A stretch of DNA of 64,000 bases, from positions 186,001 through 250,000 of the forward strand of contig OZ237765.1 in the NCBI GenBank assembly GCA_965178125.1, written 5' to 3'. This DNA comes from Bilabrum cf. latius (taxonomy: Eukaryota). The notes under the pieces are model-generated. The model worked only from the letters and a program-made list of their open reading frames with translations, was not told the origin of the DNA and did not search any database. Positions 12,555 through 60,900 of this stretch are shown piece by piece (position 1 is the stretch's first letter; every line of letters starts with the position of its first letter). The position numbers and the translations under genes were made by a program.

Positions 12555-12587
<33 letters not shown>

Positions 12588-25438: not shown

Positions 25439-25938
25439 ATGGCCACGCGCACGCGAATAATGTTTCCAAACATGCAAATGACCATGGTGCGGCGGCACTC
25501 CATGAGACTTCCCAAGAATACGTTCGTGTTTAGGTGTACGCCGAAGTATGGCAAGACTGAGATTAAGGAATACCTTTAGAAGGTGTACGGTGTCACCGTT
25601 CTCCGAGTGGCTACAATTAACTACTTAGGTGTGTTTCTGCTTTTTTTCGAACAGCCCCTCAAGCACAGCAACCCGCTTTAGTGTAATGGCCCACGAGAGC
25701 ACTACTCCTCCCCACCGCAGGCAAAATTAGGCGGTTTGGAGCCCGAAGGATATACAAGCTGAAGGATTTCAAGAAAGTGTATGTTACTATTGCCGAGGAC
25801 TCATTTGATGCCGCGCCAAAGGAGGACATCTATCGACCAAAGCTGAGTGAGGCCGGCGAGGAGGTCATGGCAGAGGTTGAGAAGAAGCGAAGAGAAGCTG
25901 CGCAATATGAGGCGAAGCACGGAGATGGGAGGGTTTGA
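25439..25938 (+). CDS. MRPL23: Mitochondrial ribosomal protein uL23m
   Basis: Exons 25439-25628 and 25721-25938. Sequence FRCTPKYGKTEIKEYL*KVYGVTVLRVATINYLGKIRR…DFKKVYVTI. In-frame TAG 25577-25579 in the conserved core. Ends with tandem TGA TAA. Confidence 0.9.
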
Positions 25939-25992
25939 TAAGTACGTCTGCAAAGCCAAGTTTCTGTTTAGCATGATAGTGTGATTGAGGTA

Positions 25993-27618
25993 TCAGAGCA
26001 AGAATCGCCTAGGGATGCAGGCTGCAGCCATCGCCTGCACTTGGCTGTAAAGCACCGCCCCATACAGACCCGCGAGGGTCCGACGACCAAACACCACGTG
26101 CATGGGATGCGCCACAAATGAATCGGGCAGGCAGTGCCTCGGGTGAGCACGGCGCTGCGCATGCATGCCCATCGCTGAAGCAGCGACAAACACGGGCATG
26201 GAGGCACCACCGTGCGATGCACCCAGTTCCGGAAACTTCGAGAGAGCTGTGTGCGATGGCCCTCCCATCCATGGTCAGGCGAAGGCCGCTTTCGAGTCGG
26301 ATCCGGGCTAGGTGGTTGCAACCGCCCCCGTGTCCGTCTTGCTTCCGCCCTGCGCGTTTGCCACAAACCCTGCCGTGCCATGCGAATGCGAACCTTCCTT
26401 GGCCCCTGCGGTTCCTGCGTGCAGCGGGTTGGACGCCGAAATCTTGCCCTCGCCGTCGGAGTCATCCCCCTTGGCCCCGCCCTCGCCCTCCTCCTGGCCG
26501 GCCTTCCACTGCTTGTAGAAGTGACGGACCGCGAGGCCGACCAGCACCCCCCCGAGAATCATCGCAACGGTAGAGCTCCAGAACACGGCGGGCGTCTCGC
26601 CCATGATTTCGGGCTCCTCTGCGCTTTCCTCCTCGGCTGCTCCCTCGAACTCTGCCAGCTCGGCGCTAGGCAGGCGGCCGAGGGGCATCTCCTCTTCTTC
26701 CTCTTCTTCCTCTTCCTCCTCTGCTTCCTCTTCCTGCTCCTCCTCCTGCTGCTCGGCCTCTTCCTGCTCCGGTTCGGTCTCCTGCGAGGCATTCACGATG
26801 GGAGAGCACGATGCGGGCGGTGGCAAGCACACTCGATGAAAAGATCTGCAGACAAATCGCTGCGACTGCACGCATTCGCTCTCGAACCGAAATAGACCTA
26901 TGCTTGTTATGCTGGATCCAAGCTCGGTGCAACCATTTGCAACTAACTGCGTTCACGTCGTAGCGGTGGGTGCGCCAGTGCCCACCCTCAACCACGTAAT
27001 TTGGGTCCTCCGGTTCCTCCTCCTGCTCTTCTTCTTGCTCCTCTTCCTCTTCCTCTTCTTCTTCCTCCTCTTCCTCTTCCTCCGACTCCGCCTCCCCCTC
27101 CTCCTCAGATTCCGGAGCTTGTAGGGATCTGGACCCACGAGGGGCAGCGTCTTCGAGCATGGCCTGGAGCAGCCCTTGCTCCCCCGACTCAATCAGCGAG
27201 GCAACGCGAGCCTCAAATGAATCAGCTGCTTAAAAGAAACTTGGAGAAGCATATGGAGGCGGGAGCGCACGTATAACTAGCACCCGGGCCATATGTGCGG
27301 TGCAGTAGCTCAGTGGAAATCGAGAACGAGCCGGCAGACTACACCACCGAAACTCAATACGTCAGGCACGGACGAATACTGGCACGCCAAAAACTGTGAT
27401 ATAAACTTTAATTAATCAAAACATCTACCATCAACAATCAGAACTGCCAAGGGTAAGAGACCAACGCTTGAAACGTGCTTCCCTTCAGCACAGGCATGTG
27501 TTCCTGTCGTGCGTGCAGCTAAGCACTCACCCTCCTAGCCTCGCAGCTGGCCTGCGTGTGCGAAAAATAGGGATGATGCCGCTGCTGCCAAGCAAAGCAC
27601 CACTGTAACCCCCTTCAT
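25993..27618 (-). CDS. Acidic type I single-pass membrane protein of unknown function
   Basis: Exon 27618-27531 encodes signal peptide MKGVTVVLCLAAAASSLFFAHA then GQLRG*E, with a GTGAGT donor. Probable exons 27225-26957 and 26781-25993. Poly-E tracts and TM VFWSSTVAMILGGVLVGLAV. TAG at 27535 and 26308. Exon structure is tentative. Confidence 0.55.
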
Positions 27619-27717
27619 GGAGTATTCCGCTCAAGTTTACTTGGCTCTGGCGACATCACACCGCTGACCCAGCCGGGTTGCAACCGGCTGTTGGTCGCAA
27701 CGCGTCAGGCTCTGTCA

Positions 27718-29251: not shown

Positions 29252-29321
<70 letters not shown>

Positions 29322-30432: not shown

Positions 30433-30640
30433 CTCAGGTAAAATTAATCAACACATGCTTGATTCGGATAGGTGAAAGTACGAGCAAGTACGCTGGTGCA
30501 TCACGCATGATGATGCATGAGCCGCATTACAGTGCAATGATATTACATTGTACAGAGCACTTTCACTTATATCGCATTTTAGTGCCACGCGGCGAGCAGG
30601 AAATTCGGCCGCTCATTCTTTCGCATCTTTCACCGCAAAC

Positions 30641-33364
30641 ATGGCCGGAGTTGCTGAAGCTGTCCCCGCACCTGCTGCCGGAGAGGCCGGAGAGGGAGCC
30701 GAGAAGTGGTCATTCGGCGCTGATATCAACCAGCTGCTGTCCCTGATCATCAACACGTGAGGAACCAGGCGTGTGGCGCCATTTGCCCAAACCCAAGCCT
30801 CACGAGCCATAGACTAGGTCCAACAATCCGCAAGATTTGACGTTTATCAATACTTTATTCTATTGCAGTGTCTACTCGAACAAGGAGGTCTTCCTTCGCG
30901 AGCTGATCTCGAACGCATCGGATGTGAGATGGTTGGATCGTCCCACGTTTCGTCCGAAAGTTGGCTGTTTGCGTCGCACAGCGAACGAGCAGTGCCCATG
31001 TCTGATCTTGTTTAAGTTTTATGGTGTAATTTTCCTCTCGTTGCTCGGCCAGCCGCTCAGCGGCAGGCCCACTTGCGGTTCGCCCACTGTGCACCCATGC
31101 CGCGTGGCAGTCCGTTCTTGGGCCGCTCATCCGCCTGGGTGGAAAGGCAGGGGGGCCCGGACTGCGATGCGCAGTGTATAATGCATCAAAGATCGCATTG
31201 ATGCCCCCGCTAGGCAAGCCGTGGACCACAGTGTTGTACAACTGCGTTGTCCAGCCGGGGAGTGTTGGCCTGTGGCGTGGTGATACGCCGCTGGTCGTCT
31301 CAGATGCTTCGCTCGCCTTGTTTGACTCGTTTCATCTTACAACACTCCAATGTACGTTGCCCGCAGGCCCTCGACAAGATCCGCTACCAGGCCATCAAGG
31401 ATTCCAAGGTCCTCGAGAGCGCCCCCGACCTCAAGATCGAGCTCATCCCCAACAAGGAGGACGGCACCCTGACCATCCGCGACACCGGGATCGGCATGAT
31501 CAAGGCCGACCTCAAGAAGCGCCTCGGAACCATCGCCAACTCTGGCACCAAGGCGTTCATGGAGGCCATCAAGGCCGGAGCCGACATCTCCATGATCGGC
31601 CAGTTCGGCGTGGGCTTCTACTCTGCCTTCCTCGTGGCCGACGAGGTGGTCGTGCACTCGAAGAACAACGACGACGACCAGTGGTGCTGGCGCTCCTCGG
31701 GCGGCGGCTCCTTCACCATCGAGCCCAGCGACTACCCCGACCTGGGCCGCGGGTCCGCCATCATCCTCAAGCTCAAGAAGGGCCAGACCGAGTACATGGA
31801 GGAGCGCCGCCTCAGGGACCTCGTGAAGAAGCACTCCGAGTTCATCCAGTTCCCCATCAACCTCCAGGTGACCAAGGAGGAGGAGAAGGAGATCGAGGAC
31901 GACGACGAGGAGGAGGACGACGAGGAGGACGATGACAAGCCCAAGGTGGAGGACGGCGAGGACAAGAAGGAGAAGAAGACCAAGAAGGTCAAGGAGGTCA
32001 CCAAGGAGTGGGACCAGGTCAACAAGACCAAGCCCCTGTGGACCCGCGCTCCCGAGGAGGTCACCACCGACGAGTACGCCGCCTTCTACAAGAGCATGGC
32101 CAACGATTACTCGGACCACCTGGCCGTCAAGCACTTCAAGCTCGAGGGGCAGCTGGACTTCACCGCGCTGCTCTTCGTGCCCAGGCAGGCCCCCTTCGAC
32201 ATGTTCGAGGGCGGCAAGAAGAAGAGGAACAACCTCAAGCTGTACGTGCGCAGGGTGTTCATCATGGACGACTGCGAGGAGCTCATGCCAGAGTACCTCA
32301 GCTTCGTCAGGGGCATCGTGGATTCCGAGGACCTTCCCCTCAACCTGTCCCGCGAGTCGCTGCAGCAGACCAAGGTGCTGTCCGTGATGAAGAAGCAGAT
32401 CGTCAAGAACTGCATCGCCCTCTTCAGGGAGCTCGCGGAGGACGAGGACAAGTACAAGACTTTCTACGAGCAGTTCGCCAAGAACCTCAAGCTGGGCATC
32501 CACGAGGACGCCGCCAACCGCTCCAAGCTGGCCGACCTCCTGAGGTACAAGTCCACCAAGTCCGGCGGCGAGTACACGTCCCTGTCCGACTACGTGGACC
32601 GGATGAAGGAGGGCCAGCCCGGCATCTACTACATCTCGGGTGAGAGCGAGGCCGCCGTGATGGACGCTCCCTTCTTGGAGCAGCTGAGGAAGAGGGACTA
32701 CGAGGTGCTGTTCATGACGGACCCCATCGACGAGTACGCCGTGCAGCAGCTGCGCGAGTACAAGAAGAGCAAGCTCATCTGCGTGACCAAGGAGGGCATG
32801 CAGCTGGACGAGACGGACGACGAGAAGAAGGCTTTCGAGGAGGCGAAGAAGGCCACCGAGGGCCTCTGCGCCGTCATCAAGGACACCCTCGGCGACAAGG
32901 TCGAGAAGGTGACCGTGTCCAACCGGCTGGACAAGTCCCCCTGCGTGCTGGTGACCGGCGAGTTCGGCTGGTCCGCCCGCATGGAGCAGATCATGAAGGC
33001 GCAGGCCCTGCGGGACCCCTCCATGTCGACCATGATGGGATCCAGGAAGAGCCTCGAGATCAACCCCATGCACCCCATCGTGCAGGCCCTGCGCGCCAAA
33101 GCGGACGAGGACAAGTCCGAGGCGTCGCTCAAGGACATCATCTTTTTGCTGTACGAGACCTCGCTGCTCACCTCTGGTTTCTCCCTGGACAAGCCCGCGA
33201 CCTTTGCCTCCCGCATCCACTCCCTCATCTCCCTGGGGCTGGAGATCGACGCCGAGGACGAGGACGAGGAGGAGGCTGCACCCGCAGCCAAGGCCGAGGG
33301 CGAGGCTGCCGCCGGCGGCGCCGACACCTCCGGCGCAGCCAGCTCCATGGAGGACATCGACTGA
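30641..33364 (+). CDS. HSP90: Cytosolic heat shock protein 90 (722 aa)
   Basis: Exons 30641-30756, 30869-30923, 31367-33364. Motifs [62 protein letters not shown] and C-terminal MEDID (MEEVD-like). No TAG; stop TGA. Confidence 0.98.
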
Positions 33365-33545
33365 AAAGTCTTTGAGGTTTGAAGCGGGCGTGAGCTCTCG
33401 CTCCTGATATCATCGGGATCGGCTGTCTTGATTGAGTGACAGGAAGATCTGTGTTTGACCGGTTTGTGCAGCCCAATAGACACTAAACAAAATCAGGTTT
33501 TCCGAGTGTGGCGGGATCCCGTCGCACGCGAGTATTCCCCGCGAA

Positions 33546-37739: not shown

Positions 37740-37899
37740 ATTTCTGATTGTGATGTATGGTCGACGGCGGCATGGTTGCCGAGTGTGCCTTGGCCGAGTG
37801 GGTCGCAACAGGCAGGAGACCACCGAAGAGGATCATGTCAGCTGTTCCGTGGTAGTACAATGTTCCGGGCGGTCTGGTATTTGTGTAATCAACTCAAAA

Positions 37900-39036
37900 G
37901 CGCGCGCTGCCAGAGTGGTTGCACATGTGTCTTTACCCTACAAAATGTTCTGGTCTTCTGGTATTCTTGTGGAACGAAAGCCCGGCCTCTACTGGGCTTC
38001 ATGCTTCAGCTGCAATGGCCTAAGCCACCTGAACTCCACCCTGAAGACCCATTTCCCCTCAGCATTCACGTTCCCTCCGGCGCCCGATGCCGGCACCCCG
38101 TCCTGCTGCCCATTCTGGCCCAACCCTGCCTTGATGTTGGCAACTGCCACGGCGAGGTTGTTGTTTCCGGTTGCCCCTGCAGCCAGGCTGACAAAGTCCT
38201 CCCGGACCGCCCTGACGAGAGCCCATTTGGCCTAGGCTGCAGCCCTCTTCGATCCCTCCGACACAAAACCGAGGATCCTTGAGTGGTCCTGCGTGACCCG
38301 TGAGTACATTGTGCGGTACGCACGATATTTACCGCTCACGTGCCGGTGCTTGGCGGCGAGAGGTGAGCCTTAGCAACAGAAGACCAAGAGGGGCGCGCAT
38401 TGACCGGACGAGTCGAAATCCGCCGCCCCTTGTCCTCCTACCGCTTCTTCCGCAACTTGTCGAGCATCCATCATGATCTACAGGAACTCGACCGACTTCT
38501 CCCCGATCTCATCCCCCAACACGTCCACCACAAAGGGTACGACCCGCACGCCACTGCGCACCGCCCCTTTCTGTGTCTTCACAGTCCCTGGACACCACTT
38601 GTCTTCTCCTCCGATCCGGACGCCTAGAGCTCCGAGGTCGACGGGCCTGCCGTAGAGTCTAGCTGGCCAGCTTCGTGGCATGCGCGGCCCGCAAAGCAGA
38701 CCCCTCTTGCCAGTCGCTGCCAATCCTCCACGACGAGCGGTCCCACTGGTAAGTTGCCGCAGTGGAATCAACCACCGTGAAGTCGATGAGAATTGCCGTA
38801 CCTTCGTGCTCAAAGAACAGGTCGCCTCGTGGCACGAGCGGACCGCGCCGACCCGGCAGGCGGACTACTTGGCCCTCTGGCTCCCGGATTGGGCGTCTGC
38901 CCGTGGCCTCGCGGACCACCTGCTCGAGCACGTTGAGCACTCGGAAGTGCCTGGCCTGCAAGTAGACACGCGTGTCTTGCACGTGGCACCGTGGCGAACT
39001 GCCAGTTTGAAACGTACCGAAGTATCTCGAAACCAA
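37900..39036 (-). mobile_element. Decayed non-LTR retrotransposon fragment, restriction-like endonuclease (RLE) domain
   Basis: ARHFRVLNVL…REP…GDLFF…LIDFTVVD…AAHATKL…Y…VVPFVVDVLG…FL matches the RH/REP/PD-D/K..KY/PF pattern of RLE-type LINE C-termini. A 7-bp insertion at 38656 causes a frameshift. No reverse transcriptase is visible and the boundaries are approximate. Confidence 0.65.
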
Positions 39037-40446: not shown

Positions 40447-40536
40447 ACTCCGTTCGACCTGCCCAGTGCGATTGCCTCTTGGGGTGGTCGTTGTAGTTGG
40501 GTAGTGTGTGCTTTGACTCAGACATATTATATTCTC

Positions 40537-40631
40537 TCTCACTCCTCCGCATCGCTACGTCGCATCTTTCTCACTCCTCCGCATCGCTACGTCGCATCTT
40601 TCTCACTCCTCCGCATCGCTACGTCGCATCT
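40537..40631. repeat. 32-bp tandem repeat x3
   Basis: tctcactcctccgcatcgctacgtcgcatctt starts at 40537, 40569 and 40601 with no spacers. Confidence 0.95.
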
Positions 40632-41243
40632 GCTCCTGCACCTCGAGCGGGTCCTGCGCCCATCGCGCGACCTCAATCTCAGAGACCTTGCTGGCCTCAC
40701 CAACACACAGCTCTTGTGGCCCCCCTCCGCGACGGCGTTAGGATCAGAATGTAATGATACGAATGTAATGATACGACTAGTCGCATGAATTTATCGTTTC
40801 TCTCTTGTTTTTTATGATAACAATCGTTTCTCTCTAATTGGATTGCTCTCGCCGCCTGTTCGGTGGCCGGTGTACATATGGCGCTTCAGCACTTCATCGA
40901 CGTCAAGACGTGGAGCAAATTAAAAGGCGCAGTTTTCGAATTCGCTTCGAGGCCGCCGTAGTCTAGAATTTCCTGCACGCTGCTCTGTTTACTGCCTCTG
41001 CCCTTCTTGAGCCCGTCGGAATAGATGCAGCAGGTTAATTGGTGTGACTCCCTAGGATAGCGCGTGTGCTCCAGATTGAAAGCGGTGACTCTCGCTATTA
41101 TTACAATTCGCGCCGTTCGGTGCGAAAGCATTACGCACGCATCTGCCCAGAAGGCGAGAGCGGGCTTCCGTCATAATGCCGGCTTGGCATCGTTGGTATC
41201 GCACGCCACCCGTGCTTTCACGACCGCCAAACGAAGACCCACC

Positions 41244-42896: not shown

Positions 42897-43195
42897 TCCA
42901 GCAGATCTAAGGTTGATTCAACCGTTGTATCGCTCCCGCAAGGAGACTTGTGTGAGTCTGCGAGGCATGCGCATTGCGCAGGAGCTCTAAGCCCCCCCCC
43001 CCCCCCCTCAGATCCGCTACGTAGCCGCTACCCGGGGGCAGACCCCTCATCAGAGGGCCCCTCATCAGAGGGGGGAGAACGATATACGATAAATTTATGG
43101 GATTCAAACTACACGCTACCCAGGCTAAGAAGTCAAGATTGAATCCAAGCCTATGCAATTTGGGGACCGTCCCCAAATGATCCCCAAATAAGCTT

Positions 43196-45997
43196 ATGGG
43201 GTTCATCCACATTCTCCTGCTGGAGCTCAGGTTGATGCCTTTTCAGAAAGAAACAGTCTCCCCGGGTGACCTGCATGAGGCAGTCGATGTGGTGGGACAG
43301 GCCAACGTGGACGCGCTGCGAGTTTGCTGCACGCTTGGCGATGATGTACAGGCGGTAATGACAGCAGTTTGAGCTGCGAGAAATAATGCAGGACGCGAGA
43401 TTCGCGGGAAGCCCGGAGTTTCTGCTGCTCTGGGGCGTTTGCATTAGCAAGGTTTGCTAGGAGCTTTGCAGAGTGAGGTTCCAGTCGACTACTTTCGCAG
43501 CTAGAAGGCAGTGGAAGATAACGCTATGATGATTTCATTCCTGGAGTCGGAGGCAAAAGCTGCGAAGCTGGCTCCGGCAAAAGCGAAGCTGGCTTCAAGT
43601 TGGGAAAAAGCGGAATCTGCGAGGCTGTCCAGGACTGGGATCCCGACGCTTTCCTAGCTGGAACAAACACTACTGTCAGGTGTCACGCACACGCGGTAAG
43701 ATGTGGAGCGCTGCTGCTCTGAGTGGGAGGAGCGAGGGCTCGCGCTCGGGGAGCCTGTCCCGCACTTTCTTCCGAGCTGGAGATCTTTACGCTCCTTTTT
43801 TCAGGAGTCCTGCTCGATTGAGGGCATCGAGGATATCGTGGGGAATATGCAGGCAGTAATTGACGACGTGATAGAGGCGCTTGTGGTGTACAACCAAGCA
43901 ATGGAGCTAGTCGATATTTTATCAGCGGACGTCGTGTTCATAGCTACCGGGGAGGGCTCCTCGAGGAAACTAGTACTGCGGGACGCGATACAAGTCTTGC
44001 TCTCGCGAATGACCGGCTTGCGCATCGATTTTTCCTTACCGAACAGGATTCTATCGGGCCCGAAAGGAATGGGGAAGACATGCATTGTGAAAGCCATAGC
44101 CCAGGCCGGCGCTCTGCTCGAATTTTCCAACCCAAGGTGGACTGTGTGTAGCGTATATGTCCCGACCCCCAAACCTAGTGTACCAGTTGGTCCGATGGGG
44201 TATATTTCCAAAGCACTGCATGATCGGGGCCTGCTGTGCGATGCCGACGGGAAGCCGGCAACGTGGGAAGTCGAGCCGGCAGTAGATCGGGCGGCGCGCA
44301 TGTACAAGTGGTGTCGGGATAGGAACGTCATTCCCGTGCTGTTGCTAGACGAAGCAGCGCGTGTCCAGAACAGGACTGACTCCGAGCTGGAGGTATTCAA
44401 GACTGAGCTTGAAGAAATGTGCGAGGTGAAGAAGTCTCATGGCATGCTCAGGCTGACCGGGACGTGGTCGCAGCTGCCCCGGCTCATGTACTCTTCAACA
44501 TTTGGCAAGATCGGGATGAACCACCAAAAGCTGGTTGAGGAGTCGCTCAGGAACGGGCTGATGCCAGCGGAGAGTGCAATGATGGGGCTGTACAACGCGC
44601 CGTTGCCACTATAGGACCGGCTCGCCCTCCGCGCTCTTCTGGCGAACCACATGCTGCAGGGTCAACCCCGGACTCTGTCGAGGACCGGGTTCCTGGATGA
44701 CGATGGAACCGAGCCCACGGGGAGGAGTGTGCAATTTTCCTTCCGCAACGCCGAGGAGCTGCGGTCCACTAGCGGTGACGTATGGGATGAGCAGCTGAAG
44801 CGCGCCACGGCGACCGTATTGAGATTGCAATACTCTTCAGGTGGCATATCGCGACACTACAGTCACGCGAGCCACCCCACTGCATTACTGAGTATGATCC
44901 TGGAGGTGCTGCGGCATAACCGCGGGATTCGACATTTGGCGGACTGGCTAGTCGATACGACTGTCAAGCTCTTTCCCAACGTACTGGCACTGCCGTTCGA
45001 CGAGTTCGTCACTAAAGTAGTCACGATGGACGCTAACGTGCTAGACGAGGCCGTCGCATTAGTTAATCCTGGTTTCGATAGATATGGATTCACCCCGGAG
45101 ATGCGAGAGGTGGCCGCCAGCGAGCTGCTCGACCACGCGGTGACGATTAGCCTGATCCACACGGAGTCGGTGGGAGTGAAGCTGTAGGATTATGCTGCCG
45201 GCGTTCGGTTCAGCGCGCCTCTCTTTCTATCAGTAACCAGGCAGGTACTGCTAAACGTGGATACGGCGCTTCCCTGGCTCGAGCAGATGGCCCTGACGTG
45301 GCCAGACGGAAGGTTTGGCAAGGACTTGGCGGAGGGGCTAATCGCGGAGGGACTGGCCTTGAATGGCCTCAAGCTGCTGCCAGACCGGGAGAAGCTGGTC
45401 GGAGGCCATTCCTTCCGCAGGGTGGATGCAGATGCGTGGTACAGGTATCACACGGCTGAGCAAAAAGACAAGGACGGAGCGCGTGCCAGGCTGCAGCCGC
45501 TACATTTGCGAAAGATTTCAGGCGACATCGAGGTGCCTCTCAACACGCTGCTGAAGGAGATGCCTGACGGGCACAAGGCGGACCTGATCGCAGTATGTCA
45601 CGCCGCCGGGAGCAAGCGCGCCTACGTGCTAAGGGTGCAGGTGAAGCTGGGCGAGTCAAAGTCCGCGTGGATGCACGACGCGACGGCTCTAAAGGAATGG
45701 TCGGACGTGCGGGGGTCGCTGCGCAAGGCAATGAACCTGCAAGATATCGAGCTCGTCCATGTGCCGGTGTTGATGGCTCCCCGTACGACAGACAACCACG
45801 CCAAGCAGATCGAGAGCGAAGGAGTGCGCGTGGTGCGAGGGCAGGACTTCTGGGACATGCAGATCCCTCATGTCCAAGCGATTGCGTGGCTAATTCCGCA
45901 AACGGAATCAACCCAGCCCGAGGAGGAGGAGATGCACACGTTTGTCCGTGTAAAGCGACCCAAGGATCAGTATTTGGAGTCTGTCAGCCAGGCCTGA
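43196..45997 (+). pseudogene. Crinkler/RHS-effector-like P-loop NTPase plus PD-(D/E)xK nuclease, 5' part disrupted
   Basis: Walker A ILSGPKGMGKT, Walker B VLLLDEA, C-terminal KADLIAV…LRVQVKLG nuclease-like motif. Intact from 43700 through TAG 44612 and 45185 to TGA 45997. The same frame upstream to ATG 43196 carries TGA 43370 and TAA 43697, so it is either a pseudogene or starts at ATG 43847. Confidence 0.6.
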
Positions 45998-46163
45998 CCC
46001 AGGTCGTACGGCGGGGGAGCTCAGCTAGTCCATCAGGTGCCCGGGGGCCACAGGAGGCGTGATGCCATGTCGCTGGCGGTGGGGACGGCCATATTTGCTT
46101 CTACCGTTGTGCCGTAACAAGATGTATCTAGCTTCAGGTTGCACTTGTGTTGCAATCACCACC

Positions 46164-46444: not shown

Positions 46445-46672
46445 GCCACCTGCACTGGCAGGGCATAGCCGTGTGTCTGCACGAGAATAGCTGCCATGTC
46501 CCTGAGGGGGTACATGGGAGACTAGTTCCCTGGATTTCATTCAGTTTCACCATCTTTCAAAGTGCGTACTTGGTGAGGGCAAAGGAATTGCGCCGGGTGG
46601 TGGTTGGCTGCGTCGGAGGGTGCACCGCACTGTACGGCCTCGGCAGCACGGAAGCACAGTCGCTAAATTGAA

Positions 46673-48490
46673 ATGGCGGGCGTCCACGACTCTCCAAAAT
46701 CGGTTGCGGGTCCAGGAGGCTTCGCACCAGGTGATTTACCTCTGCCCTTCTCGCTGGAGGAGGCGCACAAGGAAATAATGGAGCTTCGATTCGAAGTAGA
46801 AAGCCTCCGAGCACAGGTGTTGGCATCGCCAAAGCGCAAGAGAGCTACTAGCGAGCTTGCCGACGGCACCAAGCTTGATGACATTGCCATTGACGAAATG
46901 GTTGCCATGCGTAGGATCTTTGACGTCATTGACACGAATAACAATGGATGTGTAACAGCAACAGACATTGGCAAGCTTCATGCCAGCCTCGGCGAGCCCC
47001 TTGAAGGTAAGAAGCTATGCACTGCATATTTACTATGCGCAAAGTACTTGTCATTACTGGCAGGTTGACCCGTAGTAGTTGTGTGTGTTTCCATTGCATG
47101 CGGTGCATCTTCGGACATCCAAGAACGGCATGCTGCACTACCGAATCTTCGCCCCCTGAATAGATCTTGCGACATGCATTGCTTTGCACAGTCTAGCCGT
47201 AATTACATCCTGCAGAGGGCGAGGAAGCCAAAGCGCTCGAGGCCATGGGCGGCTCGGACGGCGAGATTGACTTCCCTACCTTCATGCGATTCTGGCACGA
47301 CACTCGCATGATGCGGTACAAGGAGGTCGTACGCGGCTCCAAGGACGCCAAGGCGAAGTGGAGGGAGCAGTACCAGCAGCGCTTCAAGTTCGTGCAGGCG
47401 AAGGTCACGCCGGAACTCGCGCACCTCACCGTGGACACGGAGGGAGTGGCCGGCTCACTCGACTACCGCGTCAAGTTCTATTCCACCGCGGGAGCTGGCA
47501 AGCACCAGATCTCCCCTTGGCACGACATCCCGCTCAAGAACGATGACGGGACCTACAATCTCGTCGTGGAGATCCCCAAGTGGACCAGGAACAAGTACGA
47601 GATTTGCACCACGGAGCCGTTCAACCCGATCAAACAGGACGTAAAGAACGGCAAGCCAAGAGTGTACGCGTGGGGGGATGTGAGTGATGTGCCAAACATT
47701 GATCCGGTGATGTATTGGGCGCGTGTGCCGCTCCTGTGTAGGTTGAGCACATGCATGTGCGGCGTGTTCCGCGTCCATGAAACGCTGTGCTCCGTTCCGG
47801 CCGGACCTGCTGCCTCTGTTTGCCTCTTGTTTTGCCTTCGCAGATGCCTTTCAACTACGGTGCCTTTCCTCAGACTTGGGAGGATCCCAGCCATCGGAGC
47901 GAGGCAACTGGCTGCATCGGGGACAACGACCCGATCGACGTGGTGGACATTGGAAGCAAGCAGTGGGCCGTGGGGTCCGTGGTGCGCGTCAAGATCCTGG
48001 GCGTGATTGCCTTGATCGACGACGGCGAGACGGACTGGAAAGTCATCACGATCTCGGCAGAGGTGAGCTTGAGAGCGCGGAAAAGCTTGAGGCGAGCAGC
48101 TGAACAGGTGCTCGATTCCGAGCCAGTGACCGAGCATGAACTGTGTGCCAGCACATGGAGAAGCCAGCAATTCGCGATTGTTTCGCCTCTCGTTCATGGA
48201 CCCATGTATCTGAATTGGGGATCTGTTTCACCCTGTCACTTCCCTCGCAGGACAAGCTGGCCGAGGATTTAGACGACATCGATGACGTCCGAAAGATCAT
48301 CCCCGGGGCCTCGGAATGCCTCATCCACTGGCTCAAGATGTACAAGTCAACGTACGACCCGCCCATTATAAACAAGATCGCGTTCGAGAAGCCTCAGGGG
48401 AAGGAATTCGCCACTGGTGTCGTGGAGGAGACTCATGACGCATGGAAGCGGCTGATTGCCATGAAAGGGTCCAAGGCGCTGCTCGGTTGA
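46673..48490 (+). CDS. EF-hand plus family I soluble inorganic pyrophosphatase (VSP1/acidocalcisomal-type architecture), paralog A
   Basis: Exons 46673-47006, 47216-47679, 47844-48062, 48251-48490. EF loop [12 protein letters not shown], then [53 protein letters not shown]. Stop TGA. Confidence 0.93.
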
Positions 48491-48697
48491 AGGAGCCCGG
48501 CAGGTGCTCCCGTTAACGTGTTGAATGGCTGCTCACTGACAGTGGCGATGGCCTAGTGGTGTGCTGCTTGCACGCAAGCGGCCGCATGTGTCTGCAGGGA
48601 GAATATTTTTTGGTGCAAAATGAGATTTCGAAGGATGAAGATCAATTGATGGCATCATGGCGCGAGCAGGATCTTTCATACCACGATACAGTTTCGA

Positions 48698-50501
48698 ATG
48701 GCAGCAGTTGGTGGCGCTTCAAGTTCTGTGGTTGGTCCTGCTGGGGCCACACCTGGCGAGTTGCCGCTCCCTTCGGACCTCGAAGAGGCACACAGTATCA
48801 TCCGAGAATAGCGCGCCCAACTCGAGTCCCTTCAGGCACAAATCTTCAGCGCACCAAAAATCAAGCGCGAGACTAGCGAACTTGAGGATGGGACTTAGTT
48901 AGAAGGTATCACCACGGACGAGATGGTGGCGATGCGTAAGATTTTCGACTCCGTCGACAAGGACGACAGCGGCACAATTACGGCAGCGGATGTGGGAGAG
49001 CTTCACACGCGTCTTGGGGAACCGTTGCAAGGTGAGAAACCATGTTAATTTTAGATTACGCGGCGCGAAACACCAAGCAGATTCGTTGGGCCCACTTTAT
49101 GTTAGGGCGTGCACATTTGGTGTTCTGCAGTGTGATCCACAAATTTAGCATGCTGAAGCGATGGCTCAGCTATAATGTACAATGCGTTACGAGTGTATTT
49201 ATATATGACTGCACAGCCATCTGATGCTGCTGCTGGAACGAATACATCGTCGCCGGCATTCTGCCCGTACTTGTCGCAGAAGGAGAAGAAGCCCAGGCTG
49301 TCGAGGCCATGGGCGGCTCGGATGGAATGGTAGACTTCCCTACCTTCATGAAATTCTGGCACGCTACCAAGGCCAAGCTCCGCCACGACGTGGCGAAGGG
49401 CTCCAAGGACGCCAAGGCGAAGTGGAGGGAGCAGTACCAGCAGCGCTTCAAGTTCGTGCAGGCGAAGGTCACGCCGGAACTCGCGCACATCTCGGTCGAG
49501 AGCGAAGGCATCGTGGGCTCACTCGACTACCGCGTCAAGTTCTTCTCCTCTGCGGCGGGAGGCAAGCACCAGATCTCCCCCTGGCACGACATCCCGCTCA
49601 AGAACGATGACGGGACGTACAATGTCATCGTGGAGATCCCCAAGTGGACGCGGGCCAAATATGAGACGTGCACCACGGAGCCATTCAACCCGATCAAGCA
49701 GGACGTGAAGAACGGCAAGCCGAGGAGCTACGTATGGGGCGACGTGAGTTTCTGCAGTTGAAGGGCTCGATCCACAGCTGACTTCCTCCCCATCCTGCAG
49801 TGCAGTGCAGTGCAGTGCTCGCCCCCTCATGCAATGGAGTAGTGGATGTCATGAGAATCAATTGCACCGGCTTAATTTCAAGTCCTGCCTCTGGTGTTCT
49901 TGCCTTTGATCGTCCGCAGATGCCTTTCAACTACGGTGCCTTTCCTCAGACTTGGGAGGATCCCAGCCATCGGAGCGAGGCGACCAGCTGCATCGGGGAC
50001 AACGACCCGATCGACGTGGTGGACATTGGAAGCAAGCAGTGGGCCGTGGGATCCGTGGTGCGCGTCAAGATCCTGGGCATCATTGCCATGATCGACGACG
50101 GCGAGACGGACTGGAAAGTCATCACCATCTCGGCAGAAGTGAGCATGCTCGCTCTGAGCGATTAATTGGTCGCCGACGCTGCGCCGCTTGGTTTCATTTC
50201 GTTACTTGTTTTATACTAGTTCAAATTCGCGATCTACGCTCCTCCGAACTCCCCGCAGGACAAGCTGGCCGAGGATCTGGACGACATAGATGACGTCCGA
50301 AAGATCGTGCCTGGAGCAGCCGAGAGTCTCATCCGCTGGCTGAAAATGTACAAGTCTACGCGTGATCCGCCCATCATTAACACGATCGCTTTCGACGGCA
50401 AGCCACAGGGGAAGGAATTCGCAGTGAAGATAATTGAAGAGACCCACGAAGCGTGGAAGCGCCTCATTGCACGGAAAGGGTCAAAGGCGGTACTGGGCTG
50501 A
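48698..50501 (+). CDS. EF-hand plus inorganic pyrophosphatase, tandem paralog B
   Basis: Exons 48698-49031, 49280-49743, 49920-50138, 50259-50501, with the first three exon lengths (334/464/219) identical to paralog A. Exon 1 aligns colinearly with paralog A only if TAG 48809 and 48896 are read through. Stop TGA. Confidence 0.93.
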
Positions 50502-52893: not shown

Positions 52894-55089
52894 ATGAAGG
52901 CACCTGACGGTTCGTTCGTCACAGCCAATATTCAACAATGATCTAGATATGCTACTGAATGTCAAACAGAGCCAAAATCACGAGTGAAAAGCGACGTACA
53001 ACGCGACAAATGGCGTCATTTGCGTCTTCACTTGTCGCAGACGTCCAACGGCGCGCCAAGTAGTCCTGGCTTGGGAACTCACAGGTGTACGATTACTTGC
53101 ACCATGCTGAGGAAGCTAGTATCCCTATTCTGTCGTCGCCGCCAAGTCTACCTGCTTGTAAGTTGATTAGTTGTATGTGTACGCCCGTTACTTTAGCCTG
53201 TTGTACTTTGCACCGACCATCTTGCCTCATCAGTGACTTGGTTGAAAACTGCATTTTTTCGCAGCTGGAACACTCTGCGTGTATCAGCGACTCACAAAGT
53301 ATAGGACTGATGGTCACACATGGAAGACAAAAAGCAGAGCCGGCAGCCGGGGAAGCTCAACACAGAGCCTCGTGGAGAGCCATATGCAGCTATAGGTTCC
53401 AACCGGGCGTGGGCGAGCACGCTTGTAGTGCTACTACGGCCAGGGTGCCGGCGATAATCCACTGCATAGGCGAATCTATTGGGTTGCAAAAGAACCTGCT
53501 GGCAGAATGCCTCCAATCGCGCGCTCCGCGGCACCAGCTCTGGAGGCGGCGATTCAGGCCAGAGACCGAGCTTAGGTCAAGTCTGGGGCAGCGGCAGACA
53601 ATGGCTCCAAAGGAGCAAAGCCTTCCAAATCCTCTACCGGTGGAGACGGTGGATTGCTTTTGAATTCAGTGCTCCGCAGGCACGCCCTAGTTCTCGTGCA
53701 CTACCTGCACCCTGACGTGGCCGCCGGTAAACTGTCCGGCCTCGAGGCGAGCACTACCGGCGGAGCAGTTGCTCGGGCTAGCGAACCGGCGCCCTCCGCA
53801 CCCCCACAAGTGTCCGTGTCTACATCTTCATCAATGGCAGTGCAGTCTGGCGATGCCAGCTCATAGGCACAGGCATAGGCATAGGGATAGGGATAGGGAT
53901 ATGGATAGCATGCCGGGAGCAGCAGCTCGATCGTGCCGCCCAGGCTGCCGCCTTCGAGCTTTAAATCCTCCTCCATCACGCCTGGGGCGGAGAGTGTCGG
54001 TCGTTCCCAACTTCAAGTCAGCTAGCTTTTTCCGTCCGGCCACCAGCGGTACGGCGGTCCGGAGCCGAATATGCCCGGAAGCCACAGCTTCGGAGTCCAT
54101 GCGGCCTCCTTGCCTGCCGTGCACGGTATCACCCACATCTCTCAGCCGAGAGGCACGGGCTTGGGTGTGACGAGTGGGATGGGCAGACCCCGCAGCATGA
54201 GCATCGGGAGCGTGCCATCGGAGCACTCGTCACACCCAGGTAGACTGTCGCCGTCTGGGTCGGACTGGGACGGACAGGACGTCGACACCCTGACCGGCGC
54301 CGCGCATTCCTCGTAGGTTCCGCATGACGGCCTCCAGGGGGTGTCACCCATGCAGCCTGCAGGGTCTGCCTTGGTTCCGGCGAATGCTAGCGAAGGTTCT
54401 CTGGGGTTCTCTCGCGACCACCCCTACCTGTCAGATTCGGACCGTCGCCAGCCCATGCTCGCACAGCCATCAGTCGGGCACGTAGGGCGAGGAGGAGACA
54501 GGGCGCAGCCTAGCATGGGGACTGGACTGGGGATGGGGCCATTGCAGGAGCCTGGGTTGCGGTCGAGCGTTGACTCCGGCATCAGCAATCATGATGGGAT
54601 GGGCATGGGCATCAGCAATGGCATGGGCATGGGCATGGGCATGGGCATGGGAATGGGCATGGGAATGGGCATGAGGACTGCAGGCAGCCACCGGAGCAGC
54701 GAAATGACAACGGGGCCCGGCATAGCGACGGCCGTTCCAGCTGGTGTGACGAGTGGATCGGGGCCTCCGCTGGCTGTAGACACGAGGTAGGCAAGTGGTG
54801 ACGAGAGCAAGCTCGGCGTGTCCCCGGCGAGCACTCCCGGGGTCGATTCTCGCCGAAGGAGATCCAGGAAGCGAAACAGACATGAGGCAACACCAGTACC
54901 AGTGCAAGTGCCAGGAAGTCGCGCCGTGGATCGCGCGCTCGTCACACCTTTCCCAACGCAAAGGAGACGGAGCACTGGGCAGGTGCCTTCTAGTACGCTG
55001 GTAGGGGTTCGCGATGGGTCGGCGATGGGGCTGCCCCCGCAGCTGCCGCAAGCATCCAGCAGCGCTGGGGAAACGGCGATCGACCCAAG

Positions 55090-55121
<32 letters not shown>

Positions 55122-57652
55122 CGTCACACTACCTCCGCACCATGGTACGCCATATGATCGCCTTGGCCCGCAGCAGCCCCGGCATGCAGGGCGAGATGGC
55201 GGTGAACGACTCGGAATCGGGCCTGTCCCTGCTGCACGTGGCCGTCATCTGCGGCGACCACGACGTGCTTTAGGCCCTGCTGCAGTTCGGGGTGTCCCCC
55301 AACGATGTGACGAGTGAGGGACAGCTCCCGCTGGGGCTGGCCGCCGCCCGTGGAAACGGGCCCATGTGCGCTGCTCTTCTGCGAGCGGGTGCAGACCCTG
55401 GCGCGCACTCACGGCGGGGCCTCACCGCCGAAGTCGAGGCCCAGAGGGGGGGCTTCAGGGAACTAGCAGAGGCGCTACTGGTGTGCACGGAGAGGCACGC
55501 ATCCAGGGAACAAGCGATGGGAGGGCTTGGAACAGGCGGAGGCGGCGGAGGCGCGGGCGAAGGCGATTGCGAGGCCAGCAGCCTGGCAGTCTTGCAGGAG
55601 CTGCGACGCGTGTACGGCGAGTGGAGGGCCGCAGTGGATGCTGTGGAGCAGACTGGGTCCCCAGCAGATCACGGGGACGATGCAATTCCAGGGAACAGTG
55701 GCACCACAGAGGCTCCGAGTCGGTAGGGGCAGGCACCCATGGAGGATGTGGACTCGGCTTTGCCTGCCCTGCCAGCACCTGCACTCCCACTTGGCGCCAG
55801 CGTAGGCAGTGGCACGGATGTGGTGGGGACAATAAACGGTGTCATGACTCGCAGAAAGAGTAGCGGCAGCAGCAGCAGCAGCAGCGGCCAAGGGGTGGGA
55901 AAAATCGATGGAAAGTCAGTGGGCAGTGAGCACAAGTCGAGCCCGTCCGTTAGAATCGAACCCGGTACGTCGCCGTTGGCAAACGGAACCGCGCTTGCAG
56001 CGCCTGACAGAGACTCTGATGGTGGCAGCAGGAGCAGGATGGGAATGCCAGACCCAATGGCTGCTGCAGAGATACGTGAGCAGGACAGGCGGCTGCTCCT
56101 GCACGCGCTGCAGACGCTACCCACAGAGGACAAGGAAGCGATGAGGCTCGCAGCGGCCCAGGGAACAATGCATTCCCAGGGAGCAAGTGCTAGGCAGCTC
56201 GATGGATCGGTGCAGGGTTCAATCGGATTGGATAGCGTGGGCGCGCTGGGCGGGGCTGACGAAGCAGTGGTACTGGGCGCAGCAGTGGGCGCAGGAGTGG
56301 GGGAGCAACTTCTTGGAGCCCAAGCAGACGGGGCCTCATCCATTATTTCCGACACGGGCAGCCGGCGGTCATCTGCGTCTCGGCGCCCCGTGCGCGGGGT
56401 GCACATGTCCGTTGAGCCGCCATCCCCCGCGGCACTGGCGGCCGCCGCTCGTGCCCAAGGCGGCTCTATGTCCGATGTCGAGGGCGCGCGTTCCGTGTCT
56501 GCAAGCAGCACCGCGGGCAGCGGGATCTTCGGCGGGCTCGGGGTCGGTATCGAGGACATTGACGTGGTGTCTGTGCTCAGCGAATCGCTGGATGCGGTTC
56601 AGCAGCAGCACCAGGGAACAACAAGCGGTGGCGCCGGTGAGGCCTCTTCAGGTGCGCTCTCGGCTGCACTGGCCGGGATGCGCGGCCGCGGTCCTGGGCC
56701 GGAGAGGGGGGACTCTCGAGGAGCAGAGAGCGACGGATCCTCCCAGGGAACAACTGGGATCGAGAAGGAGGCCCGCAGGATCCAGAGCAACGTGAGGGCC
56801 TGGCTGCGCAGGAAGTCCTTCCTCAGCGTCAGGCGGGCGGCACGCACCATGCAGCGGTTCGTGCGGCGGGCCAGGACGCAGCGCGGCAGGCAGGGGGTCA
56901 TGCTCGGGATCGACATAAGATCGGAGAGTGGCCAAACCGGTGGCGACTCCTCCCCTCTCCCAAGAGGCAGGGTTGACGTCCTGGGAAGCATCGCTGAAGT
57001 CGGCGCGGGAGCGGCTCAGGAGAACGTGGCCGGTCCTCGGGATAGAAACGCGGCCAGGTCGAGCACATCATCCTCTTCCTCGTCAACTCCTTCGAATTCG
57101 AATGCGGGGCGTCAGTCTGCCGGGAGTGGGTCGGCTTCCCCGCCGGACCGGCAGGCCGCCAGCGCTGCGACCATGCTGCAGGCTCGGATTAGGGGCATCA
57201 TCGCCCGGAGGGAGCTGCAGGAGCTGAGGAGGCAGGCTGCAGCTGCCATGGTGATCCAGCGAAACATGAAGAAATGGGCTGTGACCGAGCAGGACGGATC
57301 AGCGGGGAGCCAGAGCAGCGCGGAAGACGAGGAGAGGTAGGGAGACGATGACAGCAGCGATGAGGACGGTAATCTACCGCCTGGCGGTGGCATGCGGGGT
57401 GCTGCTAGAGGAAGGGTTGTCGGGAATTTGAGGAGGTCCCTATCCGGGTCGTCATTGTCGATTTCGATGCAGGGAGCAGGCGATGTGCGGGGCCGCGGCA
57501 GGGACAGAGACAGTGACGGGGCTGGCACAGAGTCACCCCCAATGCGAGAGGCAGGGTCCGAGATATCCTCCCTTCTGGGCACTGGCTCGTCACCACACCC
57601 TGAAACTGGTGAGTCCGCTGCGAAAAGGATGCGGGTGGAGAAAGGATCATGA
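52894..57652 (+). CDS. CAMTA-like transcription factor (CG-1 DNA-binding domain, ankyrin repeats, IQ motifs)
   Basis: Probable exons 52894-52909 (tentative), 53041-53157, 53265-57652. CG-1 domain AK*SWL…PASGTLCVY…YRTDGHTWKTK…ESHMQL*V…L*CYY…LHRRIYW…LVLVHYL. Ankyrins GLSLLHVAV…DVL*ALL and GQLPLGLAA. IQ motifs IQSNVRAWLRRK and LQARIRGIIARR. 15 in-frame TAG; stop TGA. Confidence 0.88.
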
Positions 57653-57934
57653 GAGAATCGGAAAGACTGGAACTGGTGCGGCCCGGGGGTGCTGCAATCT
57701 CCGGGTCCGTGGGTGAGGCTTTTCTTGCGTCTATCCAGTTTTGGAAGCGCACTTTGTGAACAGATTATGGGTTTATGTCACACTGGATCCGGGGCTAGAA
57801 TTCGGATGAGATGAGTAGATAATAGACGATGATATTTGCTCCAAAACCCCCCTAGCTAGGATAGAGCTCGGTTCCGTCGCGAGCACACCGCAAACCAAGC
57901 CATTCGACAATTTTTCGGGAGCAACGACTTGCTG

Positions 57935-60900
57935 TTACTGAAACAAGGTGAACCGCTGCACGCAAGAGGTCATCTGGACCGTCCTCGCCGCCCTGCGCAG
58001 AAGCGCTTCCGTCTCACCCTCTCCGACCGAAGCATCGAAGAGACCCACGAGGCATAGACCAGGACCAGCGTGCCCGCTGCTGCTGCCGGCCCAGAAGCCC
58101 CCGTCTGGCCCTGCCGTGCCGCTCCCCGCCCCGCTCGACGGCTTTCCAGCACCATCACTCCCCACCAGCACCTTGCCCGCCTTTCCGTCCCCTGCCCCGG
58201 CATCCGCATCCTCTGCCCCGAATCCTGAGGGCCTGGCCTCGCTCTTCCACAGCCCTGCCACCACGCCGTCCGAGCATCGCTGGGCCACGAACTCTCGTTG
58301 CACTCGAGACCCGGCCCCGCCCATGAGCGTGCTGACGATGTGCTGGTACCTTCGGAAGAGCCTCTTGCGCGGCTTGTACCCAAACATACCGGGAGGCAGC
58401 CTGCTGCATACCACCTGGGGCGGCGAGGCTCCCAAGTACGCCACCACTAGATGCGCAAGTCCCGGCGCCTGGAACTGCGCCGGGTCGGGACCCCCAGATC
58501 GCACCGAACCGGTCATGGGCCGGAGAGAGGCTGCTTGCCTCAGCTGCGACAGCACGCTACCACCGACCTTTGGCATGCTTGGAATCGAGTCGCCGTCGTT
58601 GGTGATCAGCACAAGGTACACGTCGTCCATGTCGGTGTCCTGCGTTTCGCGGGGCAGGGGCTTTCCCCTTTGCACGTCGTACATGTCCGCAAGCACGCCG
58701 GGCGTCAGCCGAGCGCCCCCACCGAGCCACTGCTGGCCCAGCTTCAGCGCGGCGCCCTGGTTCCGCTCGTGTTCCCCGACAGGATCGGCACGCTTCCCAG
58801 GGGCACCGTCACCGGCGCCCGACTCGCCTGACGATGGCGACGGGCTTCGCGCACGGTCCGTGGCTAGGGACGGACCCGCGAGTGTACCGGGCCTCTAGTA
58901 AATACTGGCGGCGTTCTGATGTTCCCTGCCGTCCGCGAAAGAAGAAGAAGAGGAAGACGAAGCAGCAGCAGCTGACGCTGCCAGGGAGCCTCTCCCGTTG
59001 GCTCCCATGTAAGATGACCCACCGGCCCCAGCGCCTACCCACCTGCTCTAGTTCTCCAAAAGATCTGCAGCCGCCACTGCCCGCTCAGCCCCCTGTATGG
59101 TCTGGTCAGCCCACCTGAGGTGAGCGTCCAGCTGCCTCTCGTTGGCCACTGTGGTGAGTGGGTCATAGCTGGGCCTCGGGCCAGACCTCAGTGTTCCTTC
59201 CTCCAGTCCTGTCCTGGCCCATGCAGCAGGGAGAGAGGGGCGGGGGAGCTCCGGGGGATGAGCACCTTCGTGCAATGCGCTTTGACCCGGGGGGTTCGCC
59301 GGATCCATGGAAGGTTCCCCCTCCCCTCTCGCCCTCTTGCGCACCAGCCGCCGGTCGGATTTGGCCCTGTCGTGCGCTTTCCTCGTCACACCCTGCAGCA
59401 TCCGCCGGAGGCGACGGGCGGAGGAGGCACCCGGCACTGTCGACAGGAATGCCTGCTCCCCGGAGCGGAACCGGCGCCGCGCTTCGTCCGCCTCGGATGC
59501 CACTTCCCTTGTCTCGTCGGTACCCGAGGCTGCACCCGCTCCAGCCCCGGGGCCGGGGCCGCCGCCATCATGACTGACGCCTGCATCACCGTGCGATGCA
59601 TCCAATCCAACCGCCGGGTTGCTCGCGATGGCACGCAGCACGTCCTGTCCCGCACCACCGTGCGATGCATCCATGCCACCGTCCCTGTCCCTGTCCCTGT
59701 CCCTGGGGCTGGAATGCGCGGACCGCGACGACCCCCGGGACCTGGAAGTGAATCTACCCGCTCCTTGGATCTCTTGTTCCCCAGAGCCTTGTTCCTCGGC
59801 GGTCAGGCCCTCTAAGGGCAGCTGGGGAGGAGCGACGAATGAGCCGTCCGTGCGGCGCTGCTGCGGCGGAACCGACGGCGCCGCGCGATGGCGGACGGTG
59901 GGCGCGCTGTGGGCCCCAACTGAGGAAGACGTGTCGCCGCCCCTTCGCTCGTCGCTGTTCCATGAATCCCCCTCCCGCCCACCAACCCCGCCCGCAGCAT
60001 CCCGGGCGGCCAGGGCAGCAGACTCCGCCGCGAGCGCGACCGCGTCCGTACTCAGCTCCTCTTGCCTGTGTTCCCTGCGCTCCTGGATGCCGGTTGCAAC
60101 CTCCTCGGCGGGAGCCCTCACATCCGCCTCCATCTGGGTGGCCAAAGTGAGGGCCCTCCGCGACGATTGGGAGGTCCCGTATGCGGGGGCGCGCGATTGG
60201 CCCCCTTCTCTTGCAGCACTGGCATCGGCTGCTGCTCCCACGGCTGCCTGAGTTCCGGTCTGCGGTGGTTCCTTCCGGTCCGAATGCGCGGCGCCGCTCG
60301 CTTGCGGAACGTATTCCTCGATTTCTGCCACTGTTTCGGAGAGCGCAGGCGCGACCCTCGACGGTCCCCTCGTGATGGAGCCCAGGTAGCTCACGTGGGC
60401 GTAGAGGTACCCAGTGGAGGAGATGGAGGGGAGGCAGATGGGCAGGATGGCGGGGGCCAGCCGCATCTGGGGGTTGCTGTGGATTTGGGCTCCGAGTAGG
60501 ACGAGGTCCCGCGGCCTCAGCTGCAGGTGGGGCCTGCTCGGCTGCACCAGAGCAGCGATTTCGGCGCCCGCAAACACGCAGGCGTAGTGGGCATGCGGCC
60601 TGGCGGATTCAAGCACCTTGCGCATCGTGTTGCGGTGCCTGAGCTCCAGTGGCAAAACCGGAACTGCGTCGAAGAGCAGCAGCGGCGCTCGGTTGCAGAA
60701 GCGGAGCAGGGTTCGGAAGACCCCTTCGTTGGCCCGAACAAGCTTTCTGAGGTCTTGTCGCGGGGCCTCGACCGTTCGCAGCGTGGCTCCGAATACAAGG
60801 GCGTCGTGCAGCGCGCCTAACTGCGCCCTGAGGTGTTCCTCACTCTCCCCAGTGCGCGAGGCGGCGAGCATGCGGAGCCTGCCTCGGCGCTCCACGACCA

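Follow-up and report, generated by a model that had tools for sequence, protein, structure and literature searches.

Probable separation of UAG, read as glutamine, from UAA, kept as a stop codon, in a GC-rich nuclear locus of Bilabrum cf. latius

The stretch of 64,000 nucleotides from contig OZ237765.1 of Bilabrum cf. latius (positions 186,001 to 250,000 of the forward strand; hereafter the window, numbered from its first letter) raises the question of whether the codons UAG and UAA have parted in this nuclear genetic code. An earlier note on this DNA had claimed that the two codons are decoupled, with UAA still acting as a stop. We found that TAG is translated in the window, that TAA is excluded from reading frames far beyond the effect of guanine-cytosine (GC) bias, and that TAA stands at two natural protein C-termini, all of which agrees with that claim. 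It is thus quite probable that UAG encodes glutamine while UAA is not a sense codon and is used as a stop.

The analysis was based on the 64 kb of the window and on one related metagenome contig (L001). The window (~61% GC) is GC-rich eukaryotic nuclear DNA of a conventional, intron-bearing chromosomal kind, with ~19 protein genes on both strands, many of them single very long exons with low-complexity inserts. Contigs from four sequencing runs (X1, X5, X6 and X7) were compared with the window. Six GT..AG introns of 107-248 nucleotides, with GTRAG donors and acceptors ending in CAG, were backed by joints in runs X5-X7 that are absent from the DNA run X1; X5-X7 were taken as cDNA-bearing solely from these joints, there being no RNA label on record. 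Uncovered stretches and the contig ends at 57793 and 57824 were not taken as transcript ends.

We compared the longest reading frames obtained under different sets of stop codons. With the three standard stops, the longest frames were 965, 947 and 812 codons, and with TAG as a sense codon they became 1827, 1637 and 1469 codons. Allowing TAA as sense brought almost no further gain, and allowing TGA as sense never built gene-length frames, the longest being 1134 codons versus 1827 with TAG as sense. An ambiguous, context-dependent stop code of the Condylostoma or Blastocrithidia type was rejected on the same behaviour of TGA and on the lack of in-frame TAA. Three long frames that carry TAG are as follows.

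889 to 5799, minus strand: C-terminal frame of a cyclic-nucleotide-gated channel gene, 1,636 codons with 6 TAG and 0 TAA.
7594 to 13074, plus strand: frame of an EGF-like, glutamine-rich gene, 1,826 codons with 22 in-frame TAG and 0 TAA, TGA at both bounds.
53246 to 57652, plus strand: frame of a CAMTA-like gene, 1,468 codons with 15 in-frame TAG and 0 TAA, Pfam CG-1 and ankyrin matches, terminator TGA at 57650-57652.

Across 17 long frames (15,162 codons) we counted 68 TAG, 649 CAG and 155 CAA, and TAG was present in 14 of the 17; for a few of the counted TAGs (e.g. 31211 and 33477) the likely start codon is further downstream. TAGs flanked by coding-like sequence number 32 in annotated genes read in their sense frames. 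Pfam domains were found downstream of in-frame TAGs in the channel, GH20, CAMTA and AAA genes; in the channel gene, the TAG at 5592 precedes both Ion_trans_2 and cNMP_binding. The run contigs keep the letters of the DNA over the TAG-rich stretches of CAMTA and Mon1, and contigs of X5 showed 0 other letters over 53265-54161 and 55130-57793 at CAMTA, indicating that editing is not the explanation of the TAGs. No gene among the 19 in the window needs TAG as a stop, HSP90 and two pyrophosphatase-like copies, for example, ending in TGA. TAG is translated as a sense codon in the window.

The amino acid was addressed through repeat contexts and through a relative. TAG is embedded in polyglutamine and in QA or QG repeats that are otherwise written with CAG or CAA, such as QQYxQQQQQQYxQQ and LxLQxMQQQxLxQQQQ in the EGF-like, glutamine-rich gene (x being TAG), while TAGs of the CAMTA gene stand in AQAxAxGxGxGYGxH and within an ankyrin repeat. 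A metagenome scan with Mon1 gave a single locus, L001 (3,068 bp), from a relative; its Mon1 ortholog contains 6 in-frame TAG and 0 TAA among 815 codons, and this contig ends before the Mon1 C-terminus. In conserved blocks, defined by at least 7 of 11 surrounding residues being identical, 3 of 3 TAGs of L001 align to CAG in the window (PAQFQAPGL, RRYQHIVST), a small sample of three. One database protein (P0123) is the L001 ortholog cut exactly before its TAG, which is the product expected of a standard-code gene caller, and another (P0122) begins at the first methionine after the position of another TAG in L001; the public gene calls for this lineage are thus fragments cut at TAG. When compared with solved structures, the TAG of the GH20 gene fell in a variable column (lysine in human HexB) and was uninformative for the assignment. 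Taken together, the repeat contexts and the three CAG-aligned positions point to glutamine, rather than leucine or serine, as the meaning of UAG, which would make up ~8% of the glutamine codons in the window.

TAG is unevenly distributed among the genes. It is absent from the strongly biased HSP90 exon (third-position GC 0.93; 24 CAG and 1 CAA) and is concentrated in low-complexity, glutamine-rich regulatory or extracellular proteins (22 and 15 TAG in the frames at 7594-13074 and 53246-57652), a distribution expected for a rare, poorly decoded glutamine codon.

We then considered how genes end in the window. TGA closes 17 of the 19 genes and TAA the remaining 2, as the earlier note had counted. 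The features concerned are listed here.

57935 to 57937, minus strand: TAA terminator of Mon1, judged from homologue ends, the drop in coding score and the lack of a splice joint.
57938 to 60967, minus strand: Mon1 main exon, with longin domains 1-3, long low-complexity inserts and TAGs at 59050 and 58897.
41244 to 41246, minus strand: TAA terminator of a B-lectin gene, judged from domain completeness, the drop in coding score and unspliced contigs.
41247 to 42896, minus strand: B-lectin coding frame, with a signal peptide and three repeats, a Pfam B_lectin match and no TAG.
25936 to 25941, plus strand: tandem TGA TAA after the last exon (25687-25938) of a uL23-like gene, read directly from the sequence.

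The Mon1 exon matches the Pfam families Fuz_longin_1 and Fuz_longin_2. A search with its last 261 residues among 1.84 billion representative proteins returned 7 matches. Four full-length Mon1-like proteins (29-32% identity) stay aligned with Mon1 across the third longin domain, and their ends fall 13 residues short of the TAA; the 95%-identical fragment P0122 stops at the same residue as Mon1 of the window. The C-terminal piece had 0 matches among solved structures at E <=1 and 0 Pfam families at E <=10. In the lectin gene, the three repeats align with one another; nothing is missing from the third, and 26 more residues separate it from the TAA. Both TAAs thus lie at protein ends that are marked as natural, by homologues in Mon1 and by domain structure in the lectin, and the termination of these two genes by TAA, which the earlier note had proposed, was upheld.

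The sequence after each TAA does not look coding. The coding score fell from +0.21 to -0.18 across the Mon1 TAA and from +0.23 to -0.14 across the lectin TAA, as it drops after 12 of 12 control TGA stops. A run-on of Mon1 to its next in-frame TGA would be 96 codons, scored as non-coding, and would reach into the 3′ end of its convergent neighbour CAMTA, which has its TGA at a distance of 282 bp; a run-on of the lectin to its next TGA would take 234 codons, also scored as non-coding, with 4 further in-frame TAA. Both TAAs sit in GTAA contexts, and the earlier note had cautioned that these could be splice donors. The contexts are real, but the caution is weakened: in none of the four runs was a splice joint found at the Mon1 TAA or at the lectin TAA, and contigs of X6 (41050-41490) and X7 (41005-41415) cross the lectin TAA unspliced while the same runs carry spliced introns elsewhere.

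The tandem TGA TAA that had been noted behind the uL23-like exon is present, and its TAA (25939-25941) is uninformative on the meaning of the codon because the TGA at 25936-25938 already stops the frame. The similarity of the exon to Pfam Ribosomal_L23 is weak (E=0.026, over positions 55-82 of the 86 in the profile).

A second stop-type codon directly after TGA was seen in 5 of the 19 genes (23189, 27718, 61971, 25938 and 16986), as TGA-TGA three times and as TGA-TAA and TGA-TAG once each. The three TGA-TGA tandems look above chance in this small sample and may hint at leaky UGA termination.

Of the alternatives, the one that survives best, although we regard it as unlikely, is that UAA has in effect no assignment, or terminates only weakly or in certain contexts, with UGA the only efficient stop; UAA would then be avoided everywhere and tolerated at the few gene ends where a short run-on is harmless. 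The low share of TAA (2 of 19 gene ends) fits this, as does the finding that neither TAA is followed by a back-up stop within 50 codons (the next stand at +54 and +85), and the efficiency of termination is not judgeable from sequence alone. However, both TAAs coincide with a natural protein end, and non-coding-like run-ons of 54 to 96 residues would be costly on a conserved trafficking protein. A share of ~10% is also unremarkable for the AT-richest stop at ~61% GC, and UAA remains a true stop in every UAG-only code published (PMC5304391, PMC11687900).

If UAA were instead a glutamine codon like UAG, it should occur in reading frames. Its absence from the 17 long frames is a matter of definition, as these were delimited with TAA as a stop, and the statement of the earlier note that no intact gene has an in-frame TAA is partly circular for frames so delimited. 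A non-circular set was therefore formed by the 9 frames that are bounded by TGA on both sides even with TAA allowed as sense. In these frames (8,689 codons) we counted 55 TAG, 0 TAA, 405 CAG and 78 CAA, while 21 TAAs occur off-frame in the same frames. If TAA shared the meaning of TAG, 10.6 would be expected from the CAA to CAG ratio (78/405), and the probability of finding none is 6e-5; a conservative count restricted to the 32 TAGs flanked by coding-like sequence gave P = 0.0036. The contrast drawn by the earlier note between dozens of in-frame TAG and no in-frame TAA thus holds in a set free of the circularity, and TAA is excluded from reading frames far beyond GC bias.

We also scanned all six frames for TAA and TAG codons with 60 TGA-free codons on each side. 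The coding score was coding-like on both flanks for 4 of 81 TAA versus 48 of 235 TAG. The TAA at 50163 has such flanks but lies within an intron backed by run joints, and that at 15631 falls in the antisense frame of a known gene. Two further TAAs are the following.

38370 to 38372, minus strand: in-frame TAA in an open reading frame (ORF) that has no other support, between two weakly coding-like frames.
43697 to 43699, plus strand: in-frame TAA upstream of the AAA-ATPase frame, whose first main-frame ATG, at 43844, lies 147 nucleotides downstream.

A candidate phase-0 GT..AG intron of 153 nucleotides (38289-38441) would remove the first of these. At the AAA gene, the coding score jumps to 0.67 at the ATG at 43844, compared with -0.05 and -0.11 in two windows around the TAA at 43697, and a TGA stands in the same frame at 43370, just as the earlier note had described for the gene carrying this TAA. 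Most likely the TAA at 43697 belongs to the 5′ leader, possibly after an upstream ORF. The ORFs around 38372 and upstream of 43697 had no Pfam family above threshold, and a search with the AAA protein including the stretch upstream of 43697 found 0 of 8,000 candidates at E <=0.001.

Two side observations concern these places. The stretch 37836-38660 (minus strand), with two coding-like blocks in one frame on either side of the candidate intron, may be a small gene missing from the annotation, which would converge on the gene ending at 37739. The orphan AAA-ATPase gene has a leader of ~670 nucleotides (43172-43844, plus strand) covered by run contigs, and its main frame is mildly coding-like upstream through the TAA at 43697 and the TGA at 43370; this upstream stretch could be in-frame upstream ORFs or a decayed N-terminal extension.

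These counts bear directly on the ordinary code in which both UAG and UAA encode glutamine (the type of NCBI table 6), with TAA simply too rare to be met in 64 kb of GC-rich DNA and with the Mon1 and lectin genes running on or splicing to further exons. Codons ending in A are indeed disfavoured (CAA/CAG 0.19-0.24, AAA/AAG 0.14-0.20), both terminal TAAs stand in GTAA contexts, and the TAAs at 43697 and 38372 have coding-like flanks. However, the GC bias, which the earlier note had named as making TAA rare anyway, is already contained in the expectation of 10.6 against 0, and the 21 off-frame occurrences show that TAA is not rare in the DNA itself. Moreover, both run-ons are non-coding by score, that of the lectin meeting further TAAs, while the Mon1 homologues end at the TAA and the Mon1 run-on would invade its convergent neighbour. 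We therefore consider this explanation very improbable. Still less probable is the idea that the in-frame TAGs are introns, pseudogenes, RNA editing or assembly errors with no split to explain. Stop-to-stop frames do include stretches of intron or leader, and certain TAGs in the counts belong to these (e.g. 31211, 33477 and 50217). However, TAG is present in 14 of the 17 long frames, has coding-like flanks on both sides in 32 cases in sense frames, sits within repeats otherwise written CAG, is carried unchanged by run contigs and is shared by the relative at positions that are CAG in the window, and TGA and TAA never act like it.

Several points weigh against the reading in which UAG is glutamine and UAA a stop. 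TAA-terminated genes number two, in one 64-kb window of ~19 genes, and 19 genes are too few to exclude a rare or context-dependent stop role of UAG. The contigs cannot show the mRNA 3′ ends of Mon1 or the lectin, and X5, the run whose contig spans the Mon1 TAA, was rated as probably DNA despite six spliced joints. The lectin TAA stands in a GTAAGG context that resembles confirmed donors, and no close lectin homologue fixes the C-terminus, the 31 matches having 21-35% identity. The leader and intron explanations for the TAAs at 43697 and 38372 are plausible but unproven. Finally, the genes of eRF1 and of the tRNA lie outside the window, which leaves the mechanism to inference. The main residual doubt accordingly concerns the efficiency and generality of UAA termination, together with its tRNA and eRF1 basis.

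Under the nuclear code proposed here, UAG would stand for glutamine at low frequency, and UAA and UGA would be terminators, with UGA at about nine of ten gene ends. By the logic published for codes of this kind, UAG would be read by a tRNA-Gln(CUA), which differs from tRNA-Gln(CUG) in a single base and would not read UAA owing to a C:A clash at the wobble position. A single eRF1 would have lost or weakened its grip on G at the third position of the stop codon and would still recognise UAA and UGA. ARAGORN and Rfam found no tRNA gene in the 64-kb window, and Rfam found no RNA family there.

A split of this kind is known. UAG as glutamine with UAA and UGA as stops was first shown for the fornicate Iotanema spirale by Panek et al. 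2017 (PMC5304391), who scrutinized 126 transcripts and found 104 UAA and 15 UGA among the 119 with complete 3′ ends. The eRF1 of I. spirale carries a T32G change in the GTS motif, and a tRNA-Gln(CUA) together with an eRF1 weakened for UAG was postulated; the same source states that these assignments appear in the old NCBI table 15, which was wrongly credited to Blepharisma (PMC5304391). The window resembles Iotanema in reading UAG as glutamine, in having no in-frame UAA or UGA, in closing genes with UAA and in the mechanism postulated. It differs in that UAA is the main terminator there, whereas here UGA dominates (17 of 19) and UAA is minor, in an apparently unrelated lineage at ~61% GC.

According to McGowan et al. 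2024 (PMC11687900), UAG as glutamine with UAA as stop also occurs in the ciliates Hartmannula sinica and Trochilia petrani and is cited for Protocruzia tuzeti; in these ciliates 86.9-98.3% of genes end in UAA and UGA is rarely used. The same source explains that a CUA anticodon does not read UAA, so that UAG can change alone, whereas a tRNA(UUA) reads both codons by wobble, so that a change of UAA drags UAG along and not the reverse. Like these phyllopharyngean ciliates and Protocruzia, the window has UAG alone reassigned to glutamine and UAA retained; unlike them, its stop usage is reversed and it is conventional, intron-bearing chromosomal DNA. UAG is likewise decoupled from UAA, which remains a stop, in the rhizarian exLh and the TARA phyllopharyngean metagenome-assembled genomes, where it encodes leucine, and in Scotinosphaera, where it encodes serine (PMC5304391, PMC11687900); there the amino acid differs from the glutamine found here. 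Codes with both UAG and UAA as glutamine (NCBI table 6), listed in that literature for many ciliates, ulvophytes, hexamitin diplomonads and Streblomastix (PMC11687900), share UAG as glutamine with the window but also read UAA as glutamine, while in the window TAA is kept out of frames and ends genes.

The split that the earlier note had claimed is supported, but the novelty implied there was overstated, as decoupled codes have been published since 2017 (PMC5304391 and PMC11687900). What differs is the setting: UGA as main terminator, a GC-rich genome and an apparently unrelated lineage. No account of this code from a stramenopile-like or GC-rich protist came up in searches of one collection of full-text papers, supplementary files not included.

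As to the lineage, the nearest named HSP90 sequences are from stramenopiles at just 63-67% identity, and one unnamed metagenome HSP90 protein has 91% identity to that of the window. On these sequence comparisons, the lineage appears unrelated to fornicates or ciliates. The code probably belongs to a new lineage, with UGA as its main terminator. The gene compared is this one.

31364 to 33364, plus strand: HSP90 main exon, Pfam HSP90 E=5e-224, profile positions 1-509 of 518, ending in TGA.

Among 20 long frames submitted, 12 had a Pfam family at E <=0.01. Among them are a cyclic-nucleotide-gated channel, GH47, a lysine methyltransferase, an esterase, HSP90 and GH20 with a ricin-type lectin module, as well as a B-lectin, an AAA ATPase, the CAMTA-like factor and Mon1. 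Upstream of the Mon1 main exon, three short blocks (window 61050-61461, minus strand; L001 182-578) are conserved at 77-92% at the protein level by tblastx; they probably represent small 5′ exons that supply the beginning of the first longin domain, which is otherwise missing. Tandem paralogues at 46667-48490 and 48650-50501 (plus strand) fuse an EF-hand-like N-terminal part to an inorganic-pyrophosphatase-like body; both have four exons with introns backed by run joints, and their C-termini read ...KGSKALLG and ...KGSKAVLG, followed by TGA. Exon 1 of the second copy (copy B) contains two in-frame TAGs, at positions occupied by leucine and lysine in copy A.

At the lectin gene, all named homologues are bacterial (e.g. 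Rathayibacter and other actinobacteria), and the gene may have been acquired horizontally. One contig of the DNA run X1 joins 40704 to 43086 and skips the whole lectin gene, which could be a presence/absence variant or an assembly artefact. Flanking direct repeats were considered as the cause of this joint; just a 32-nucleotide tandem repeat in three copies, at 40533-40631 (plus strand) downstream of the lectin gene, was found, and the lead was dropped.

We tentatively suggest that the window reveals an unreported, independent origin of UAG as glutamine with UAA as stop, in a protist lineage that branches deeply, is rich in GC and is probably related to stramenopiles. At least one environmental relative (L001) would share it, and it would be the first such case with UGA as main terminator. 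Changes of the nuclear code are rare, and splits between UAG and UAA are rarer, with a handful of lineages since 2017. Every independent origin is a test of whether tRNA wobble or eRF1 underlies the coupling of the two codons. If the suggestion is true, the rarest stop, UAA, was kept and the commoner UAG was captured, the opposite of a simple codon capture by mutational bias, and UAA resists reassignment without being locked in by heavy use. For annotation, standard-code callers cut proteins at every TAG, so this genome and its relatives should be annotated with TAG as glutamine and TAA as stop, and not with table 6. A GC-rich, UGA-terminating case would widen the conditions known for the split. 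It would also offer a naturally occurring eRF1 able to tell UAG from UAA, of interest for the engineering of amber suppression.

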